Shown here one piece after another: positions 11,020-61,000 of a stretch of DNA of 64,000 nt (position 1 is its first letter; each line of letters starts with the position of its first letter). This stretch comes from Patescibacteria group bacterium. Its GTDB lineage: Bacteria; Patescibacteriota; Patescibacteriia; JAHJFT01. The notes beneath the pieces are model-generated. The model made no database searches, was not told where the DNA came from, and saw only the letters and a list, made by a program, of their open reading frames with translations. The position numbers and the translations under genes are program-made. Location of the stretch: positions 231,397 to 295,396 of the forward strand of contig JAQTTB010000001.1 in NCBI GenBank assembly GCA_028710985.1, read 5' to 3'.

Positions 11020-11039
11020 CCTGCCTGCCGGCAGGCAGG
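11020..11039. repeat. 20-bp perfect palindrome CCTGCCTGCCGGCAGGCAGG (copy 1 of 4)
   Basis: Exact copies lie at 22348-22367 and 60981-61000, and a variant at 47295-47315. All are intergenic or at gene 3' ends. Confidence 0.85.
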
Positions 11040-11068: not shown

Positions 11069-11129
11069 GGAGGAGTGGCCGACCCCGCGCAGCGGGGCCC
11101 TGCTTCGCGGGGGTGGCTGAAAGCGCCGC
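11069..11129 (+). pseudogene. degenerate tRNA-Ser 5' fragment (nt 1-14 plus a D-loop/anticodon-stem remnant) interrupted by a 32-bp GC hairpin
   Basis: GGAGGAGTGGCCGA is identical to the first 14 nt of the intact tRNA-Ser at 11387. GGCTGAAAGCGCCGC differs by 2 nt from GGTTGAAGGCGCCGC. The insertion ccccgcgcagcggggccctgcttcgcgggggt lies between them. Confidence 0.5.
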
Positions 11130-11139
11130 AATTATAAAA

Positions 11140-11385
11140 ATGTTCACAACCTATATCTTAAAAAGTTTAAAAAATGGTAAACATTACATTGGGCATACTA
11201 ATGATATGCCGGCGCGATTAGAACGGCATAACCAGGGAAGGGTTAAGTCAACAAAAAATGGACGCCCCTGGGAATTAATTTATTCAGAAATATTTAAAAC
11301 AAAATCGGAAGCTAATCGTCGGGAATTTGAAATAAAGAGTTATAAAGGCGGGATATTATTTAAAAAACTTTTCAAACTCATTTAA
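11140..11385 (+). CDS. GIY-YIG nuclease family protein (UPF0213-like)
   Basis: YILKSLKNGKHYIGHTNDMPARLERHNQG...KSEANRREFEIKSYKGG carries the GIY-YIG core with conserved Arg/Glu/Asn residues. The ORF ends 1 nt before the tRNA-Ser. Confidence 0.85.
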   Translation: MFTTYILKSLKNGKHYIGHTNDMPARLERHNQGRVKSTKNGRPWELIYSEIFKTKSEANRREFEIKSYKGGILFKKLFKLI

Positions 11386-11386
11386 C

Positions 11387-11476
11387 GGAGGAGTGGCCGA
11401 GTGGTTGAAGGCGCCGCTCTCGAAAAGCGGTATGCCCGAAAGGGTATCGTGAGTTCAAATCTCACCTCCTCCGCCA
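11387..11476 (+). tRNA. tRNA-Ser (anticodon CGA), long variable arm, CCA encoded
   Basis: GGAGGAG-TG-GCC-GAGTGGTTGAA-GGC-G-CCGCT-CTCGAAA-AGCGG-(18-nt variable arm)-GTGAG-TTCAAAT-CTCAC-CTCCTCC-G-CCA. Confidence 0.9.
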
Positions 11477-22347: not shown

Positions 22348-22440
22348 CCTGCCTGCCGGCAGGCAGGTTCCATTATTCATGATTCCTGATTCTCGTGTTG
22401 CTGGAATCATGTTTTTTTATTATAATAGTAGTGTATTTTT

Positions 22441-41334: not shown

Positions 41335-41341
41335 AAGAATT

Positions 41342-41377
41342 AAAAAACGCCCGCAGATGGGGTGACCAGAGGGAATT
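41342..41377. repeat. 36-bp duplicate of the tRNA-His 3' end plus downstream flank (identical to 41535-41570)
   Basis: aaaaaacgcccgcagatggggtgaccagagggaatt occurs twice, 193 bp apart. The first copy is not part of a tRNA. Confidence 0.7.
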
Positions 41378-41550
41378 TCACATCGTCCCCCGCACCGCGG
41401 GGGACTCTTGCGGGAACCTTCAGGTTCCCGCAGGCCCTCCTCCGAATGTAAGAGGGCTCCGCCCCCTTACCATCCCCTGGTTCAATTCCCATTCCGAAAG
41501 TGCACCTTCTCGACAAAAAAATATTTCGCAAAATAAAAAACGCCCGCAGA

Positions 41551-41625
41551 TGGGGTGACCAGAGGGAATTGAACCCTCGTCATCGGAGCCACAATCCGAT
41601 GCTCTACCATTGAGCTATGGCCACC
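41551..41625 (-). tRNA. tRNA-His (anticodon GTG) with G-1, CCA encoded
   Basis: The minus-strand read is G-GTGGCCA-TA-GCTC-AATGGTA-GAGC-A-TCGGA-TTGTGGC-TCCGA-TGAC-GAGGG-TTCAATT-CCCTC-TGGTCAC-C-CCA. Confidence 0.85.
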
Positions 41626-41655: not shown

Positions 41656-42417
41656 TTACTCCGCTTTTTTATTTTTATCGTTGTATGTTTCAAACGCACG
41701 CAGGACTTCAAGCGGAATCGCAAAGACAATTGTGTTTGACTGGTCCGAAGAAACATCGTTGATCGTGGAAAGCGTCCGGAGATGAAGCGCGCCCGGACTT
41801 TTGGCGAGCGTCTCCGCCGCCTTGCGCAGATTCTCCGAGGCGGATACTTCACCCTCGGCCTTGATGACCACCGCGCGCCGCTCCCGTTCGGCTTCGGCTT
41901 GCTTGGCGATCACTCTCTGCATGTTCTCCGGCAGGGTGATATCTTTGAGATCGACCGACTGCACTTCAATGCCCCACGGATCAGTTAGCTTTTCAACAAT
42001 GTCCCTGATTTTTTGCGATGCCTCTTCGCGCTTTGAAAGAAGCTCGTCCAAATCCATCTGGCCGCAGACATTTCTCATCGTGGTCTGCGCGAGCTGCGAC
42101 GTGGCGTAGCGGAAATCTTCAACTTCAATAATGGCCTTTTGCGCTTCTTTAACTTTGTAATATATAACCGCGTTTATCTTGGTGGATACATTATCACGGG
42201 TAATGGCTTCCTGAAAAGGCACGTCCGTGGCTTTGACGCGGATATCGACTTTTTGCATGCCCTGAAAAATCGGAAAAACCAGCCGCCATCCCGGCTCCAG
42301 GACTTTTTTATACTTGCCAAGCTGAAATTTCACTCCGCGCTCATACTGCTTTATCTGCCGGATTGAAATCAGAATCACGAAAAGAACTACGCCGACTATC
42401 CAATATAATATATCCAT
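41656..42417 (-). CDS. SPFH/band-7 (stomatin/prohibitin-like) membrane protein
   Basis: An N-terminal TM segment is followed by the SPFH core (VDIRVKATDVPFQEAITRDNVSTKINAVIYYKV) and a C-terminal coiled coil. Confidence 0.8.
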   Translation of the reverse strand: MDILYWIVGVVLFVILISIRQIKQYERGVKFQLGKYKKVLEPGWRLVFPIFQGMQKVDIRVKATDVPFQEAITRDNVSTKINAVIYYKVKEAQKAIIEVEDFRYATSQLAQTTMRNVCGQMDLDELLSKREEASQKIRDIVEKLTDPWGIEVQSVDLKDITLPENMQRVIAKQAEAERERRAVVIKAEGEVSASENLRKAAETLAKSPGALHLRTLSTINDVSSDQSNTIVFAIPLEVLRAFETYNDKNKKAE

Positions 42418-42511
42418 ACATTTAAAATTTAAAATTGAATTAAAATATTATTGAAAAATTTTCCGCCCGAGGCGGATGCGCCTCTGGCGCAAAAATTGCC
42501 CGAAGGGCTGG

Positions 42512-42621
42512 TACGCCCAGTAGGAATCGAACCTACATATCCAGCTTACCTGCCCGCCAGTGCCTCTACCCCCAGTAGGAATCGAACCTACATATCCAGC
42601 TTACCTGCCCGCCAGTGCCTC
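42512..42621 (-). repeat. two tandem 55-bp units, each a tRNA-Arg 3' half (anticodon-stem 3' strand to acceptor end) plus a 24-nt flank (CCTGCCCGCCAGTGCCTCTAC-containing)
   Basis: cccagtaggaatcgaacctacatatccagcttacctgcccgccagtgcctctac is repeated. The outermost copy ends in the acceptor TGGGCGT rather than TGGGGGT. Confidence 0.7.
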
Positions 42622-42693
42622 TACCCCCAGTAGGAATCGAACCTACATATCCAGCTTAGAAGGCTGGTGTTCTATCCATTGAACTATAGGGGC
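42622..42693 (-). tRNA. tRNA-Arg (anticodon TCT)
   Basis: The minus-strand read is GCCCCTA-TA-GTTC-AATGGATA-GAAC-A-CCAGC-CTTCTAA-GCTGG-ATAT-GTAGG-TTCGATT-CCTAC-TGGGGGT-A. The acceptor stem has two G-U pairs. Confidence 0.7.
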
Positions 42694-42712
42694 ACAGGCC
42701 ATGGCAGGCGGG

Positions 42713-42747
42713 GAAGGCTGGTGTTCTATCCATTGAACTATGGGCGC
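42713..42747 (-). pseudogene. isolated tRNA-Arg 5' half (acceptor GCGCCCA through the anticodon loop CTTC), complementary to the outermost 3' half at 42512-42545
   Basis: GCGCCCATAGTTCAATGGATAGAACACCAGCCTTC is followed by the linker CCCGCCTGCCATGGCCTGT (revcomp CCATGGCAGGCGGG, also seen at 52420). Confidence 0.5.
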
Positions 42748-42758
42748 ATAAATTTTTT

Positions 42759-42830
42759 TGCCCCCGAGAGGAATTGAACCTCTATTTAGAGCTTAGGAGT
42801 CTCCCGTTCTATCCGTTGAACTACAGGGGC
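42759..42830 (-). tRNA. tRNA-Arg (anticodon CCT)
   Basis: The minus-strand read is GCCCCTG-TA-GTTC-AACGGATA-GAAC-G-GGAGA-CTCCTAA-GCTCT-AAAT-AGAGG-TTCAATT-CCTCT-CGGGGGC-A. There is one A-G mismatch at the base of the anticodon stem. Confidence 0.6.
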
Positions 42831-42839
42831 ATGATTCAA

Positions 42840-43070
42840 CTATCGCCTTGACAATCTTTTTACTTTTCTTTTTTTAATAAACCTTTCTCTGCGATAGGCC
42901 TCTTCAATACTATCAAATTCTTCGATTCTGGCAATCTTCCATGGCTTAAATGCCGAAGTATATCGGGATAATCCATTATTATGCTGAGCCAATCTTCTTT
43001 TTATATTATTTGTAACTCCAACATAATAACTGCCATTTTTTAAACTTTCTAGAATATATAGAAAATGCAT
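42840..43070 (-). CDS. GIY-YIG nuclease family protein (UPF0213-like)
   Basis: MHFLYILESLKNGSYYVGVTNNIKRRLAQHNNG...EEAYRRERFIKK. The ORF ends 9 nt before the tRNA-Arg(CCT) 5' end, on the same strand. Confidence 0.8.
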   Translation of the reverse strand: MHFLYILESLKNGSYYVGVTNNIKRRLAQHNNGLSRYTSAFKPWKIARIEEFDSIEEAYRRERFIKKRKVKRLSRR

Positions 43071-43083
43071 CTTTAAAATATTA

Positions 43084-43190
43084 GAAGACCTCTATTGTAT
43101 CCATTGAATCCCGACGTTCCGCCGCAGGCGGAAGTCGGGATCCCGACCCCCCGACCCCGCGGGCGTCGGGGCGTCGGGACTACAGGGGCG
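43084..43190 (-). pseudogene. degenerate tRNA-Arg 5' fragment (GCCCCTGTAGT ... TTCAATGGATA ... CTTCTAA) split by a ~70-bp GC hairpin insertion, immediately upstream of the GIY-YIG start
   Basis: The minus-strand read is CGCCCCTGTAGT-[cccgacgcc...gtcggga hairpins]-TTCAATGGATACAATAGAGGTCTTCTAATATTTTAAAG-ATG(GIY-YIG). This is the same layout as at 11069-11140. Confidence 0.45.
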
Positions 43191-43228
43191 AAAAAACGCT
43201 CTAAATATAGCACAAAATTAATACACTG

Positions 43229-44179
43229 TCAATCATCGCGCCGCTGTTTTCCGTGGAATGCCTGATGGACCTCGCGGAGCTGCTTATTCGTGATATGGGT
43301 ATATATCTGCGTCGTGGTGATTGACGAATGCCCGAGCATTGACTGCACCGAACGGATGTCCGCTCCGTTCATCAAGAGATCCGTGGCGAACGAATGGCGC
43401 AGAGTATGCGGCGATACATGCTTGGTAATGCCGGCGGCTTTGCTGTAGCGCTCAATCAGTCGCTGGATGCTCCGCGGCGTGAGCCGCGCGTCTTTTTCGG
43501 ACGCGGCCGCTGCGCCCTTGGCCCGGTCGTGACGCACAAAAAACGCCGGATGCGCGTCATTTCGTTTTTTCAGATATTCATGGAGCCAAAATTTCGCCTG
43601 ATTGGATAAAAACACCACGCGCGTCTTTGAACCCTTGCCGCGAACCGTGAATTCATCGCGGTCAAGATTCACGTCTTCAATATCCAGGCCCACGAGCTCG
43701 GAAACGCGCATGCCGGTTGAAAATAAAAGTTCAAGAATGGCGCGGTCGCGTTTGGCGATGATCTCCGGCTGTTTTAATTTCTGCGGCTGCTCAATCAGGC
43801 GGTCCAAATCTCCGCCTTCCAAAAAATCAACCTGCCGGTCCGGCATTTTCGCGAGCTCAATCTTTTCCGCCGGCATGGTCTTGATGTCCCGCTTGGCCAG
43901 ATACTTGAGCCAGGCGCGGAGCGCGATGAGATGATAATTCTGCGTTGATTTGGAAAGCGGCTGTTTAAATTTGTCTTCCATCCGGTTGAGATAAAGCCGG
44001 AAATCGCGCACCCGGTCGGCGGTGATCTCCTCGGGCTTGGCGATCTTGGCCCAATCCAAAAATCTCTGAAGATAAAATTCGTAATTCGCCCGCGTCCGCC
44101 GGCTCCGGCCTTTTTCAATTTCAAGATAATCAAGAAAATCACCAAGCAGCTGCTGAATTTTTGTTGTCGGCTTTGCCAT
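43229..44179 (-). CDS. tyrosine recombinase, XerC/XerD family (could also be an integrase for the adjacent tRNA-linked repeats)
   Basis: The N-terminal core-binding domain is followed by C-terminal HTLRHSFATDLLMNGADIRSVQSMLGHSSITTTQIYTH, which carries the R...HxxR...Y catalytic motifs. Confidence 0.85.
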   Translation of the reverse strand: MAKPTTKIQQLLGDFLDYLEIEKGRSRRTRANYEFYLQRFLDWAKIAKPEEITADRVRDFRLYLNRMEDKFKQPLSKSTQNYHLIALRAWLKYLAKRDIKTMPAEKIELAKMPDRQVDFLEGGDLDRLIEQPQKLKQPEIIAKRDRAILELLFSTGMRVSELVGLDIEDVNLDRDEFTVRGKGSKTRVVFLSNQAKFWLHEYLKKRNDAHPAFFVRHDRAKGAAAASEKDARLTPRSIQRLIERYSKAAGITKHVSPHTLRHSFATDLLMNGADIRSVQSMLGHSSITTTQIYTHITNKQLREVHQAFHGKQRRDD

Positions 44180-46756: not shown

Positions 46757-47347
46757 ATGATTATACGACCAGATCAGCGAATCGGCGTTTTCATTGATGT
46801 GCAGAATCTTTATTACTCGGCGCGCAATCTTTTCGGCGCCAAAGTGAATTTTGGAAATATCGTTACCACCGCGGTCGGCGGACGCAAACTCATCCGGGCA
46901 ATCGCCTATGTGGTGAGCACGCCGTCCGGCGAAGAAAAACCATTCTTTGAAGCCTTATATCATCTGGGCATTGAAACCCGCGAAAAAGAATTGCAGGAAT
47001 TTTTCGGCGGCGCGAAAAAAGCCGACTGGGATGTCGGCCTCGCGGTTGACGCCATCCGCATCGCCGAACTTCTTGACGTCGTGGTGCTGGTTTCCGGCGA
47101 CGGCGATTACTGCCCGCTCGTGGAATATCTCAAGGGCCGCGGCCGCCAGGTTGAAATCGCGGCTTTCGGCGAAACAACTTCATCCCGCCTCAAAGAAATG
47201 GCCGACGAATTCATTGACTTGAGCAAAGACCCCGGCAACTTCCTGATCCGCCCGAAATCCGCAAATCGTCGCAATCAAAATCCAAAATCCAAAACCTGCC
47301 TGCCGGCAGGCAAGGTCCAAAATCCAAAATTTAATAATAAATATTAA
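46757..47347 (+). CDS. NYN-domain (LabA/DUF88-like, PIN-related) protein
   Basis: RIGVFIDVQNLYYSAR...VVLVSGDGDYCPLVEYL carries the GDGDY signature. The start is set at MIIRPDQ. The C-terminal tail reads through the CCTGCC palindrome. Confidence 0.75.
   Translation: MIIRPDQRIGVFIDVQNLYYSARNLFGAKVNFGNIVTTAVGGRKLIRAIAYVVSTPSGEEKPFFEALYHLGIETREKELQEFFGGAKKADWDVGLAVDAIRIAELLDVVVLVSGDGDYCPLVEYLKGRGRQVEIAAFGETTSSRLKEMADEFIDLSKDPGNFLIRPKSANRRNQNPKSKTCLPAGKVQNPKFNNKY
47295..47315. repeat. variant copy of the 20-bp palindrome (CCTGCCTGCCGGCAGGCAAGG), flanked by direct repeats TCCAAAATCCAAAA
   Basis: The 14-bp direct repeats lie at 47281-47294 and 47316-47329. Confidence 0.8.
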
Positions 47348-51612: not shown

Positions 51613-51984
51613 ATGGACCAGGAATTTATAAAACAAATCAAGAAAAACCTTGAAACCGAGCGCACCCGTCTCGAAGAAGAGCTCAAGGAATTCACCACCA
51701 AGAACAAGCACAATCCCGAGGATTATAACGCTGAATTTCCCCAGCTCGGCGACAAGGAAGATGAAAACGCGAACGAAGTCGCTCTATACAGCGATAATTT
51801 GACGCTGGAACGCACTTTGGAAAAGTCGCTCCGCGACGTTGTTAAGTCCCTGGAACGCATTGAAAAGGGCGAATACGGCATCTGCAAATACTGCGGCAAG
51901 GAAATATCTAAAGAGCGGCTGCTCGCCCGGCCGACTTCTAGCGCATGCATCGAATGCAAAAAAGTCCTGACCCAAGAACTCTAA
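51613..51984 (+). CDS. DksA/TraR-family C4-type zinc-finger protein
   Basis: An N-terminal coiled coil is followed by CKYCGKEISKERLLARPTSSACIECK, which supplies the four Cys. Confidence 0.7.
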   Translation: MDQEFIKQIKKNLETERTRLEEELKEFTTKNKHNPEDYNAEFPQLGDKEDENANEVALYSDNLTLERTLEKSLRDVVKSLERIEKGEYGICKYCGKEISKERLLARPTSSACIECKKVLTQEL

Positions 51985-52466
51985 GGCTAATCTATGCCGC
52001 TTTCCTTGGTCTGGGTTTTTTGCTCGATCGGGCATTAAAATATCTGGCAATGCGAGGGCTCCCACAAGAGGAGCTTTTTATTATCCCAAAAATCTTGAGC
52101 TTTACTCTTTATGAAAACCGCGGCATGGCATTCGGCATCGCGGTGCCACATCTGCCGCTCGTCGCCACCGGCGCCGTACTTCTCGTCCTTCTCTTTGCCA
52201 TGATTATTTATTCTGTAAAAATGAACCGCTCGATCTGGCTCTACGCTTCGTGCGCCATCTTCGCTGGCGGCTTAAGCAACTTCATTGACCGCGCTCTCTG
52301 TGACGCGACTATTGACTATCTCTACCTCCGGCCGTACTCTTTTATCAATATCGCAGATATAATGATCGTGGGCGGCTGCCTCATTTCTATTGCCGCCTGC
52401 CCGCCAGGCCTTGCCAGGCATGGCAGGCGGGCTCTGCATAATGGCAAAAAATTACATGTCCAATAA
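51945..52466 (+). CDS. lspA: lipoprotein signal peptidase II
   Basis: ENRGMAFGI and FINIADIMIVGG match the LspA conserved boxes. The start is uncertain (a non-ATG start is possible). The C-terminal end reads through a GC palindrome. Confidence 0.6.
   Translation: MHRMQKSPDPRTLRLIYAAFLGLGFLLDRALKYLAMRGLPQEELFIIPKILSFTLYENRGMAFGIAVPHLPLVATGAVLLVLLFAMIIYSVKMNRSIWLYASCAIFAGGLSNFIDRALCDATIDYLYLRPYSFINIADIMIVGGCLISIAACPPGLARHGRRALHNGKKLHVQ
52397..52432. repeat. GC-rich near-palindrome CCTGCCCGCCAGG...CATGGCAGGCGGG, related to the tRNA-Arg flank motifs and to the CCTGCC palindrome family
   Basis: CCTGCCCGCCAG also occurs 3x in the tRNA-Arg repeat units. CATGGCAGGCGGG also occurs at 42700-42712. 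Confidence 0.65.
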
Positions 52467-53979
52467 AATTTACTCCATGGCCGTCATCGGCCTGGAATCC
52501 GAACCCGTTGAAGTTGAAGCCGACACCTCGCAAGGCATTCATTTTTTAATTGTCGGCCTGCCGGATACCGCGGTTCAGGAATCGAAAGAGCGCGTGCGCT
52601 CGGCCATCAAAAATTCTGGATTTGAATTTCCGCGCGGCAAGGTCGTGGTTAATCTCGCGCCCGCAGACATCAAAAAACAAGGCCCGAGCTTTGATCTTCC
52701 GATCGCCGTGAGCATTCTTAAAAAAACCGGCCAGATTCCCGATACCTTTGCCGAATCGCCCAAGGAGATCTTCGCCGGAGAACTTTCTCTTGAAGGTGGC
52801 CTTCGCCCCATCACCGGCGTGCTCGCCATGGCAATTTCCGCCAAGGCGCTCGGCGCCGAATCTTTTTATGTGCCCGCGGCCAATGCCGCCGAGGCGGCGC
52901 TCGTGCCCGGCCCAAAAATTTTTGCCGTGGAAAATCTTGAACAACTCGCGCGCCACCTGCGCGGCGAACAGATTATTGAACCTTATGAAAAAACTTTTAA
53001 TTCCCTGCCGCCGCCGAGCGCGGAAACGGCTTATGACTTTGCCTACGTCAAAGGGCAAGAGCATGTAAAGCGCGCTCTAGAAATCGCCGCCGCCGGAGCG
53101 CACAATGTTCTCATGTCCGGTCCGCCCGGCTCGGGTAAAACGCTCCTCGCGCGCGCCCTGCCGAGCATCCTGCCCGACCTCACGATTGAGGAAGCCCTGG
53201 AAATTACCAAAATCTACAGCGTTGCCGGCCAGCTCCCCACCGATAAACCAATCATTTCCGAGCGTCCGTTCCGCTCGCCGCACCATACCGCGAGCGGCGT
53301 CTCCCTCGTGGGCGGCGGCGCCTGGCCCAAGCCCGGCGAGGTGAGCCTTGCCCACCGCGGCGTTCTTTTCCTGGATGAATTTCCGGAATTTACGCGCCAG
53401 GTTCTGGAAAATCTACGCCAGCCCCTGGAAGACGGCTCAATCACCGTTTCGCGCGCCGCCGGCACTCTCCAGTTTCCGGCAAAATTCATGCTCGTGGCCG
53501 CGCGCAATCCCTGCCCCTGCGGCTATGCGAGCGACCCACTGACCGCCTGCTCCTGCAGTCCGATCAACATCATAAATTATAATAAAAAAATATCCGGCCC
53601 ATTGCTTGATCGCATCGATCTTCATGTCGACGTGCCGAAAATTAAATTTGAAAAATTGGAAACCGACACTCTCTCCGAACCGTCATCGATAATCAAAGCG
53701 CGCGTACAGGCCGCTCGCGACATCCAGGCCAAGCGCTTCCGCGGACTGAATATCCTGACCAACGCGGAAATGAACAACCAAATGATAAAATCATTCTGCC
53801 AATTGGATCAAGAATCGCGCGAGCTCATGCGCCAGGCGGTTGAACAAATTCATCTTTCGGCACGCGGTTATTTCCGCATGCTAAAAATCAGCCGCACTAT
53901 CGCCGACCTCGAAGCCGCGGAAGCAATCACAAGCCGCCACGTCGCCGAAGCGTTGCAATATAGACCAAGAGTTGAATAG
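52441..53979 (+). CDS. comM: Mg-chelatase-like AAA+ ATPase YifB/ComM
   Basis: AVIGLESEPVEVEADTSQGIHFLIVGLPD is the N-terminal Lon-like domain. GPPGSGKT is the Walker A and VLFLDEFPEF the Walker B. There is a C-terminal Mg-chelatase domain. An alternative start lies at 52456. Confidence 0.85.
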   Translation: MAKNYMSNKIYSMAVIGLESEPVEVEADTSQGIHFLIVGLPDTAVQESKERVRSAIKNSGFEFPRGKVVVNLAPADIKKQGPSFDLPIAVSILKKTGQIPDTFAESPKEIFAGELSLEGGLRPITGVLAMAISAKALGAESFYVPAANAAEAALVPGPKIFAVENLEQLARHLRGEQIIEPYEKTFNSLPPPSAETAYDFAYVKGQEHVKRALEIAAAGAHNVLMSGPPGSGKTLLARALPSILPDLTIEEALEITKIYSVAGQLPTDKPIISERPFRSPHHTASGVSLVGGGAWPKPGEVSLAHRGVLFLDEFPEFTRQVLENLRQPLEDGSITVSRAAGTLQFPAKFMLVAARNPCPCGYASDPLTACSCSPINIINYNKKISGPLLDRIDLHVDVPKIKFEKLETDTLSEPSSIIKARVQAARDIQAKRFRGLNILTNAEMNNQMIKSFCQLDQESRELMRQAVEQIHLSARGYFRMLKISRTIADLEAAEAITSRHVAEALQYRPRVE

Positions 53980-60980: not shown

Positions 60981-61000
60981 CCTGCCTGCCGGCAGGCAGG
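60981..61000. repeat. 20-bp perfect palindrome CCTGCCTGCCGGCAGGCAGG (copy 4)
   Basis: An exact copy, downstream of the HD gene. Confidence 0.85.

Follow-up and report, generated by a model that had tools for sequence, protein, structure and literature searches.

Why should a complete tRNA gene lie between the two halves of another gene for the same tRNA? This question is raised by a stretch of 64,000 nucleotides (nt) from a Patescibacteria group bacterium (contig JAQTTB010000001.1, assembly GCA_028710985.1), which we call the window and in which a tRNA-Arg(UCU) gene is split in its anticodon loop around a second, intact one. The nested and fragmented tRNA-Arg locus noticed in the initial annotation proved real and well outside what chance would produce, and every piece listed there was located on the minus strand; what had been overlooked is that the locus is one case of a widespread and regular architecture. 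The explanation that we consider probable is that a cassette of the homing type, bounded by a palindrome, has broken into an essential tRNA gene while supplying a substitute for it, leaving the outer halves behind as relics. Throughout, coordinates are those of the window, breaks within tRNAs are given in tRNA nucleotide numbering with a vertical bar at the break, and labels L001 to L124 denote retrieved relatives and contigs. Read along the minus strand, the nest consists of the following parts:

42713-42747, minus strand: shell 5' half A of tRNA-Arg(UCU), nt 1-35 (35 nt); nhmmer match to model positions 3-35, E = 4.7e-7
42694-42712, minus strand: linker L1, 19 nt, CCCGCCTGCCATGGCCTGT, the 5' cassette boundary and proposed left clamp arm, pairing with L2
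42622-42693, minus strand: inner complete tRNA-Arg(UCU) without encoded CCA; ARAGORN, Rfam tRNA 73.3 bits
42604-42621, minus strand: linker L2 copy 1, 18 nt, GAGGCACTGGCGGGCAGG, proposed right clamp arm, abutting T36 of the next 3' half
42567-42603, minus strand: spare 3' half B' (nt 36-73, acceptor TGGGGGT); nhmmer model positions 36-71, E = 1.6e-5
42549-42566, minus strand: linker L2 copy 2; from the sequence and Tandem Repeats Finder
42509-42548, minus strand: shell 3' half A (nt 36-73, acceptor TGGGCGT), then A and CCA; nhmmer model positions 36-72, E = 2.9e-5

The orphan 5' half A, the 19-nt linker behind it and the complete tRNA-Arg(TCT) were thus all recovered as previously described. 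Half A reads GCGCCCA...CCAGCCTTC and ends with CTTC of the anticodon loop, and a profile hidden Markov model (HMM) of tRNA-Arg(TCT) yields fragment matches that break exactly at model positions 35|36. A compensatory pair distinguishes the outer halves from the inner gene (G3-C70 vs C3-G70), and ARAGORN calls a tRNA-Arg(tct) once the outer A halves are re-joined. They form a cognate pair, as had been claimed for the last 3' half and the orphan 5' half, and represent a tRNA-Arg(UCU) gene that was continuous until an insertion with a complete replacement tRNA split it in the anticodon loop. Inner tRNA and shell share 94% identity in the window, and the inner copy is presumed to be the functional gene. 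The cassette itself (42712-42604) does not contain an open reading frame (ORF). The 3' half B' is an exact copy of the 3' half of the inner tRNA, and the 55-bp tandem units reported earlier are indeed present in the assembled sequence (Tandem Repeats Finder: period 55, 2.7 copies, 98% matches). Short-read unitigs L001-L003 from the same samples (SRR22315509, SRR22315508) stop inside the tRNA repeats, into which the end of L001 (2938-2969) and the starts of L002 and L003 fall; L001 halts 4 nt before 5' half A and the inner tRNA diverge. As a shared stretch of 29 nt should not break a graph with k = 31, these stops may reflect allele variation in the population.

The nested design was seen in more than 25 independent Patescibacteria assemblies. 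Its hallmarks are a split between nt 35 and 36, mutually pairing linkers of the type CCCGCC.../...GGCGGGCAGG and a tRNA of the same anticodon inside. Among 67 loci anchored on the Xer tyrosine recombinase gene that neighbors the nest, two (L011 and L029) show a 5' half up to nt 35, a CCCGCC linker, a complete tRNA-Arg(TCT), a linker ending in GGCGGG(C[AG]GG) and TAAG, and the profile HMM breaks at 35|36 in both just as in the window; in L007, the right-hand side of the design is present. Public metagenome contigs were scanned for the right junction GGGCRGG|TAAGC...GGTTCRAWTCC, which returned 29 contigs. In 26 of them a complete tRNA ends 12-50 nt upstream of the junction (23 Arg-UCU, 3 Met-CAU), and 22 of these 26 also carry the left junction, i.e. 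a 5' half with a CCCGCC... linker. The anticodon of the cargo equals that of the shell in every readable case (UCU/UCU, CAU/CAU and CCU/CCU), including the tRNA-Arg(CCU) nest in L078. Two linker families occur, CCCGCCTGCC...GGCGGGCAGG as in the window and CCCGCCCGACTCGCCTGAC...GACGAGTCAGGCGGGCGGG, with most metagenome loci of the a-type sharing the L1 core CCCGCCTGCC. Genomes with Xer proteins of no more than 55-68% identity have these linkers and the 35|36 phosphodiester in common, and both also occur in tRNA-Met.

Inner tRNA and shell are only 61-88% identical in most loci, and a comparison of L073 with L082 yields 99% identity for the inner tRNAs but only 65% for the shells. Hairpins of L1/L2 without cargo occupy the 35|36 site in L075 and L118, and the otherwise identical L076 and L094 differ in the number of units consisting of L2 and a 3' half. 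Multi-layer nests exist in L011 and L071. The latter (1429-1800 of the oriented copy) has three layers, the outermost tRNA being split in the T arm by CCCCCCACCATT / AATGGTGGGGGG, while further inside a shell split at 35|36 harbors a complete tRNA-Arg(TCT). L097 and L092 are nests of tRNA-Met(CAU) that agree with the others in their linkers and in the break at 35|36; the shell of L097 has a 9-nt anticodon loop (TTTTCA|TAA) and is read as tRNA-SeC(tca) by ARAGORN, which is probably a matter of decay. In the literature searched we found no description of nested tRNA genes, of L1/L2-type linkers or of tRNA-linked Slx1-like GIY-YIG genes, which is not proof that none exists.

How the nest arose can be read from alleles in related organisms. 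In the clade of the window (relatives with Xer 75-80% identical) the gene order is SLT_2, Xer, tRNA-Arg(CCT), tRNA-Arg(TCT), Band_7. The close relative L119 has both tRNA-Arg genes back to back, uninterrupted and without fragments, and in L121 only a 3' relic with two hairpins in its T loop is added. In L123 and L124, tRNA-Arg(CCT) is represented by a perfect 5' half and, further on, a complete gene; between them lie two hairpins, which belong to the TCCCGAC...GTCGGGA family also seen in the window, and a GIY-YIG ORF with a frameshift, and a plain tRNA-Arg(TCT) follows. The comparison with orthologous regions that the initial annotation had proposed recovered the nest in L118 from an unrelated and independent JGI metagenome, with the shell GCGCCCA.../...TGGGCGTACCA. 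L1 and L2 each differ in one base between L118 and the window, 5' half A in a single one, A29 of the window being G in L118, and pair 5-68 of the inner tRNA shows a compensatory change (C-G vs T-A). In the alignment, L118 has a cargo-less L1/L2 hairpin where the window has B', and a hairpin inserted in the A-type acceptor strand; since a B'-type half is not seen there, L118 was dropped as a confirmation of the 55-nt tandem unit. A further pair is provided by L005, which is empty and corresponds to the intact ancestor of the shell in the nested L004.

The empty site in L119 reads CCTTC|TAAGC and the filled site CCTTC|CCCGCC...GGCAGG|TAAGC, so that the flanks CTTC and TAAG re-join to the intact loop CTTCTAA. 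No target duplication is present at the 35|36 junctions of the window, L011, L029, L118 and 22 metagenome loci, and the target (CCTTC|TAAGC) has no bases at the break in common with the ends of the element when these are joined (GGCAGG|CCCGCC). The series L119/L121/L123/L118 defines the insertion precisely at CCTTC|TAAGC and shows that the insertions into tRNA-CCT and tRNA-TCT are independent of each other. The insertion is thus exact, duplicates nothing, hits one site of a conserved gene and is polymorphic between close relatives, some of which have the empty and others the filled allele. These are traits typical of homing-type insertions, and their combination points at homing by double-strand-break repair.

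The nest is part of a larger array (minus strand, 42462-43232), the remaining features of which are:

43204-43232, minus strand: promoter-like site TTGACA-17-TATATT with an extended -10 TG, 11/12 consensus matches; probable promoter of the whole array
43081-43189, minus strand: fragment C, relic 5' part of the resident tRNA-Arg(CCU); nhmmer fragment match 43108-43081
42840-43070, minus strand: GIY-YIG nuclease gene, 76 aa, single domain (UPF0213 / prokaryotic Slx1-like); Pfam PF01541, E = 2.9e-18
42759-42830, minus strand: complete tRNA-Arg(CCU), replacement copy downstream of the GIY-YIG ORF; ARAGORN, Rfam tRNA 62.4 bits
42462-42491, minus strand: two GC hairpins, GCGCCAGAGGCGC and TCCGCCTCGGGCGGA, then a T-run; terminator-like end of the composite transcription unit

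Judged from its sequence, the whole array appears to be one transcription unit with competing half-tRNAs. The tRNA-Arg(CCT) gene and the GIY-YIG ORF were present as annotated, the ORF residing between the relic and the complete tRNA-Arg(CCU). Fragment C, composed of GCCCCTGTAGT, a 70-nt double GC hairpin (43178-43109) and TTCAATGGATACAATAGAGGTCTTCTAA, was likewise in place, but its former assignment as a tRNA-Arg(UCU) relic had to be given up: the fragment occupies the orthologous position of tRNA-Arg(CCU), with the same promoter-like box as in L119 and L121, and the allele series identifies it as a relic of the resident tRNA-Arg(CCT). The box is also kept upstream of tRNA-Arg(CCT) in L118 and L123.

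Are the outer halves relics or exons? Upon re-joining, only 13 of 22 non-redundant shells yield valid tRNAs. Defects comprise an anticodon mutation (C35 to T in L082), loop indels (L073), mismatched stems (L099), truncation (L029) and hairpin insertions in the D loop (L072, L073, L092, L095); older shells (L004, L025, L052, L007) have lost the anticodon arm and carry two hairpins in both the D and the T loop. In L118, the acceptor strand of the shell is interrupted by a hairpin and the linkers are nevertheless conserved. At pair 29-41, every copy in the window has A-T and every copy in L118 has G-C, and this concerted change is indicative of gene conversion between copies, which would also explain the intact look of young shells. 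The inner copies of the window and L118 lack CCA, which is encoded by the resident tRNA-Arg(UCU) in L119, L121 and L123 and by shell A, and this speaks for a foreign source of the cargo. Combined with the shared-anticodon rule, the decay favors relics rather than exons.

GC-rich hairpin pairs recur at two sites of relics: in the D arm they follow TAGT(T), and in the T loop they have GGTTC on one side and GATTCC on the other. They were seen in the window (43109-43178), in L007 (5016-5085), in L123 (3564-3627) and in L004, L025, L052 and L121. The pair in fragment C of the window is homologous to those of L123 and L007, and homologous hairpin sequences were found in distant genomes. The pair looks like a site-specific double-hairpin element or like part of the event that creates the relics.

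Together, the linkers L1 and L2 make up an imperfect inverted repeat. Their duplex in the window is predicted at -25.3 kcal/mol compared to -15.7 for shuffled sequences, and pairing is predicted for all 22 loci examined (mean of -20.1 kcal/mol vs -13.6 for shuffled partners). Cores of 10 nt are conserved, their pairing in one register including an invariant C·A mismatch as well as a U·G pair, while the tails beside the inner tRNA vary yet stay complementary (AAAUUUC/GAAAUUU, GUACAAA/UUUGUAC, GCUC/GAGC). Linkers are conserved above inner tRNA and shell, with values of 0.93, 0.82 and 0.69, respectively, for L072 vs L095. Between the window and L118, intergenic DNA is unalignable and tRNA-Arg(CCT) shows about 14 differences, whereas the linkers differ in one base each, both located in the predicted internal loop. 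This near-identity, with changes confined to the internal loop, indicates that the L1:L2 helix is under selection. Most likely, L1:L2 acts as a clamp that would let the inner tRNA fold and be processed amid competing half-tRNAs; a role as a DNA cruciform recognized by a nuclease is equally conceivable. A perfect 20-nt palindrome, CCTGCCTGCCGGCAGGCAGG, occurs in intergenic spacers of the window at 11020-11039, 22348-22367, 47295-47310 (shorter) and 60981-61000. It resembles a fused L1/L2 core, has a near-identical copy in the D loop of the L072 shell and may be a cargo-less form of the same element family. Another L1/L2-like palindrome, CCTGCCCGCCAGGCCTTGCCAGGCATGGCAGGCGGG, is situated at 52396-52431 in the overlap of the ORFs 51945-52466 and 52390-53979.

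Which enzyme could make the break? The best candidate is a protein of the GIY-YIG family. The closest structures to the 76-aa protein of the window are the UPF0213 proteins 1zg2 (E = 1.3e-8) and 1ywl, followed by Slx1, and the catalytic Tyr/Tyr/Arg/Glu residues, invariant in our GIY-YIG alignment A1, are intact in the window ORF. A second GIY-YIG ORF of the window repeats the layout observed at tRNA-Arg(CCT):

11140-11385, plus strand: second GIY-YIG ORF, 45% identical to the first

At this locus (11069-11476, plus strand), the ORF is preceded by a 5' relic of tRNA-Ser, GGAGGAGTGGCCGA, two GC hairpins (11083-11112) and GTGGCTGAAAGCGCCGC, and is followed by a complete tRNA-Ser(CGA) (11387-11476). 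L100 features a 5' fragment, tRNA-His, GIY-YIG and a 3' fragment, the same arrangement is found for tRNA-Trp in L079, and in L078, L082 and L123 GIY-YIG genes reside inside or beside shells with a replacement tRNA, similar to L100. Among the 67 Xer-anchored genomes, only two (L011, L029) possess GIY-YIG homologs, and both belong to the three with L1/L2 junctions. A word-indexed search with the single 76-aa protein gave two matches; a profile of nine sequences was used instead and returned more than 7,900 relatives. Five homolog clusters were picked by protein similarity alone, and all five lie within about 150 nt of a tRNA gene, Bradyrhizobium included.

In Bradyrhizobium and relatives (L109-L114, ~1240-1737), a 78-aa GIY-YIG protein is encoded ~140 nt downstream of tRNA-Ala(GGC), with the pair residing at a position that is conserved among the chromosomes of several Bradyrhizobium genomes; the link of the family to tRNA genes hence extends beyond Patescibacteria. 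In L102 (2400-2830) and L104 (1075-1505), GIY-YIG genes beside tRNA-Ala(CGC) lie between direct repeats of ~70 nt that correspond to the sequence behind the tRNA, which indicates that insertion was accompanied by a long duplication. L105-L108 (A2, A3) are 100% identical from the last ~20 nt of tRNA-Tyr through a 79-aa GIY-YIG gene into the next gene and unrelated upstream, the homology breakpoint lying inside the T arm of the tRNA. The tRNA-His gene of the window (minus strand; regions 41338-41432 and 41531-41624) has a 40-nt direct repeat of its 3' end and flank 193 nt further on, preceded on the minus strand by two GC hairpins (41385-41432), i.e. a 3' relic of the type with two hairpins in the T loop. 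Taken together, the tRNA-Arg, tRNA-Ser and tRNA-His findings imply that all four tRNA genes of the window carry relic pieces.

The DNA anatomy, its recurrence, the empty and filled alleles, the junctions without duplication or overlap, the conserved helix and the association with GIY-YIG genes are observations, from which the homing mechanism, the nuclease and the clamp are inferred. The following course of events may be proposed. The ancestral state would have been that of L119. A hairpin and GIY-YIG cassette with a replacement tRNA would have split tRNA-Arg(CCU), after which the relic would have decayed, its loop CTCCTAA now reading CTTCTAA. In a sister event, which L118 probably shares by descent, a cassette of ~110 bp comprising L1, tRNA-Arg(UCU) and L2 would have entered tRNA-Arg(UCU) at 35|36 at the DNA level. 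A break in the gene would be repaired from a cassette-bearing copy with the tRNA halves as homology arms. Because the resident gene would be destroyed and a working replacement delivered, the insertion would be viable and hard to lose, and since the replacement tRNA recreates the target, nesting could be repeated. Gene conversion with the inner copy may keep the relics of the outer halves similar. Finally, unequal crossing-over between the direct 3'-half repeats could have added one 55-nt unit, in line with the repeat-mediated duplication considered in the initial annotation; this third step is the least certain one, with the copy number resting on this assembly.

Several points speak against the homing cassette. 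Vertical descent of the nest shared by the window and L118 needs selection on L1/L2, and a purely selfish model predicts none; the clamp is an addition meant to account for the near-identity of the linkers. Many shells are intact and as such also compatible with a functional outer gene. Most cassettes are ORF-less, and GIY-YIG genes are present on only three of the 29 nested contigs, many of which are short. The GIY-YIG proteins in question are single-domain proteins of 76-107 aa with a match to TIGR01453 in residues 1-35 only (21 bits at a cut-off of 56), so they do not combine a catalytic with a C-terminal DNA-binding domain as I-TevI/Seg-type enzymes do. Cleavage by the nest-linked proteins is putative, and a phylogenomic study viewed prokaryotic Slx1-like GIY-YIG proteins as vertically inherited repair enzymes and not as homing endonucleases (PMC1564403). 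With respect to a phage-borne origin, both junction patterns had 0 matches in 2.9 million viral contigs, and hence no vector was seen among them.

A broader formulation, which we regard as tentative and rate at somewhat less than an even chance, is that the nests constitute an undescribed intron-like class of elements that would be bounded by palindromes, target one phosphodiester of the anticodon loop, carry a whole replacement tRNA matured via its own clamp instead of splicing out like an intron or intein, and be spread by structure-specific Slx1-like GIY-YIG proteins. In its most radical version, the outer halves would also be joined at the RNA level, and the element would be the first bacterial tRNA intron outside groups I and II that has another tRNA in it.

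Splicing at the RNA level can also be envisaged as a rival to homing. Here, the outer halves would be exons and the insert a non-group-I intron, such that one transcript yields two tRNAs: L1:L2 would present the junctions, RNase P and RNase Z would free the inner tRNA, and a nuclease (perhaps GIY-YIG) and a ligase would join the halves. The L1:L2 helix, conserved and covarying with substitutions only in its internal loop, would suit this scheme, as would the 13 of 22 shells that re-join to valid tRNAs and the predicted fold of a cloverleaf within a cloverleaf (z = -4.0). We know of no bacterial enzyme set for such splicing, which counts against it. The exact and invariant 35|36 position is also that of the self-splicing group I introns found within tRNA-Asn and tRNA-Asp of Patescibacteria (PMC13011429), and work on RNA is hinted at by a described protein in which a tRNA methyltransferase is fused to a GIY-YIG domain of the prokaryotic Slx1-like type (PMC1564403). 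Splicing would, however, not require that cargo and shell share their anticodon, and yet they always do; it sits poorly with shells bearing anticodon mutations, loop indels, D- and T-loop hairpins, truncations or missing anticodon arms and with L118, which keeps L1/L2 despite an interrupted shell acceptor strand; and multi-layer nests would be purposeless. Known introns did not fit either. Rfam detected only tRNA in the window at the gathering threshold and at 42350-43300 with E up to 5, that is no RF00028 and no other intron or ribozyme. A group I intron was rejected because there is no match to the catalytic core and because the 5' exon ends with C35 (Arg) or A35 (Met) instead of the U that is needed before the splice site (rule according to PMC13011429); the 3' end of the insert is G. 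A bulge-helix-bulge (BHB) intron was rejected since two 3-nt bulges with a 4-bp helix are not formed and the junctions lie on opposite sides of a single 4 x 3 internal loop beside L1:L2. All in all, we consider splicing of the outer halves unlikely.

Purely local rearrangement is, in our view, a shade less plausible still. Slippage, tandem duplication and gene conversion combined with hairpin filler would have generated the structures independently in each lineage, and some details agree well with this, namely the 94% identity of inner tRNA and shell in the window, the perfect tandem copy of the 55-nt unit, the difference between L076 and L094 in nothing but the number of units of L2 and 3' half, and the concerted change of the 29-41 pair between the window and L118. 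Recurrence of the linkers CCCGCCTGCC/GGCGGGCAGG and CCCGCCCGACTCGCCTGAC/GACGAGTCAGGCGGGCGGG and of the 35|36 break across distant genomes and in tRNA-Met is not accounted for, nor is the identity of only 61-88% between inner tRNA and shell in most loci or the lack, in inner copies, of the CCA of resident genes.

A further proposal, already contained in the initial annotation, invokes the tyrosine recombinase gene that ends 40 bp from the array: the pieces would be remnants of Xer- or phage-type integration, each event having displaced part of a tRNA, with the bodies of the elements deleted later. Anticodon loops of tRNAs are classical attB cores, and arrays of L2 and 3' half without a 5' half (L076, L094) look like stacked attR sites. 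Relatives of the Xer protein (316 aa) are confined to Patescibacteria (Falkow-, Kerfeld-, Buchanan-, Uhr- and Magasanikbacteria and further groups), with no more than 68% identity among species representatives. In roughly 50 of the 67 loci, the Xer gene precedes a tRNA-Arg(TCT) that is mostly plain, often with tRNA-His next, and the Xer gene is present on only four of the 29 contigs from the metagenome scan; Xer is a conserved housekeeping neighbor outside the insert. Conservative site-specific recombinases require an identical overlap in both partners, and classical integration into tRNA genes duplicates only 3' parts and leaves no 5' half. At the nests, the junctions CCTTC|CCCGCC and GGCAGG|TAAGC share no core, no integrase is encoded in the insert, 5' halves are duplicated as often as 3' halves, the linkers are mutually inverted repeats unlike att sites, and a cassette of ~110 bp is probably too small for a circular recombination substrate. 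Insertion with a replacement tRNA, as inferred initially, thus stands, while the recombinase as its agent does not, and integrase remnants appear very unlikely to us.

A DDE transposon likewise failed to match. L1 and L2 resemble the terminal inverted repeats of a DDE transposon or a miniature inverted-repeat transposable element (MITE). DDE transposases leave a target duplication, and this assignment was rejected for want of one despite the pairing ends. Elements of the IS200/IS605 type (HUH) would agree with the lack of a duplication, but the ends of the cassette pair mutually rather than forming separate hairpins; on the 5' side of the left end, where such elements have a fixed target of 4-5 nt, the flank is CTTC in Arg and TTCA in Met, and the 3' flank is constantly TAAGC. 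An assembly artefact, in which strain variants of one tRNA gene were strung together, is scarcely credible even though the window stems from a metagenome-assembled genome, unitigs from the same samples end inside the repeats and the copy number of identical 55-nt units is a typical assembler error, as strain mixture cannot create the unique sequences L1 and L2, both shell halves occur in the independent unitigs L001 and L002, and the allele series with the orthologous nest in L118, together with more than 25 other assemblies from different assemblers and projects, excludes it for the nest itself.

If the homing cassette with its own replacement is true, it provides a third way for selfish DNA to inhabit an essential gene: introns and inteins remove themselves, and the nest element would bring a spare copy. 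With a tRNA, the spare copy is small enough to be a whole gene, by which the target would be recreated and onion-like nesting allowed. It would also point to a putative site- or structure-specific nuclease activity in the very large family of tiny GIY-YIG proteins. In practical terms, the nests affect tRNA annotation and pseudogene calls in Patescibacteria, explain contig breaks at tRNA loci and may serve as precise markers of horizontal exchange in unculturable organisms, and the conserved 10-bp clamp with its fixed C·A mismatch offers a defined target for tRNA-processing experiments.

The principle of homing with a replacement is known already, while the nested whole-tRNA cassette with palindromic linkers is undescribed in the literature searched. 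In the atp6 gene of Allomyces, a mobile mitochondrial ORF reportedly brings a replacement 3' end of the invaded gene. SegB of phage T4 is encoded in a tRNA gene cluster as a free-standing GIY-YIG homing endonuclease gene that moves with flanking segments (PMC2330249). Like such free-standing genes, the nests sit in or beside a conserved gene, duplicate no target sequence, are present in some relatives and absent from others, and show a decaying displaced remnant beside a functional replacement and, in some elements (L100, L079, L123 and the window), a GIY-YIG gene inside, which has decayed by frameshift in L123/L124. Unlike them, the nests replace a whole gene and are stacked into each other, most cassettes are ORF-less and of ~110 bp, the palindromic boundaries are conserved, and the nuclease is of the single-domain Slx1-like and not of the I-TevI/Seg type.

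Within the same phylum, group I introns of 184-894 nt, mostly without an endonuclease gene, reside at 35/36 in the genes for tRNA-Asn and tRNA-Asp (Nakagawa et al., mSystems 2026, PMC13011429). They share with the nests the anticodon-loop phosphodiester, precise insertion without duplication and the frequent lack of an endonuclease gene; the nest differs by having no group I core, by its size of ~110 nt, by C or A as the last base of its 5' exon and by rescue through a second gene copy. Integrative elements such as phages and islands that target tRNA genes and regenerate the 3' part of the tRNA are similar with respect to target, breakpoint in the anticodon loop, regeneration by element sequence and displaced 3' halves downstream. 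They are two orders of magnitude larger than the nest element, which lacks att identity and an integrase, displaces the 5' half as well and carries a complete tRNA. Archaeal split, tri-split and multi-intron tRNA genes with BHB motifs occur in Nanoarchaeum and Caldivirga. There too, the halves are separated by sequence whose ends pair next to the anticodon stem; the nests are bacterial, do not have BHB geometry, contain a redundant functional copy inside and feature halves that decay.

Palindromic mobile repeats come into play with the double-hairpin elements of fungal mitochondria, which are mentioned in PMC2800124 and PMC5910586. As with these, with repetitive extragenic palindromic (REP) sequences or with MITE-like repeats, GC-rich hairpins occur at many sites, e.g. 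the 20-nt palindrome found four times in the window, the hairpin pairs in D and T loops of relics and the cargo-less L1/L2 hairpins at 35|36 in L075 and L118. In our case, a subset carries tRNA cargo and is targeted to one phosphodiester of the same tRNA. The leader-trailer stems of bacterial rRNA, finally, loop out the rRNAs for RNase III, and by way of analogy the long imperfect helix that encloses a structured RNA may illustrate how the proposed L1:L2 clamp would work.

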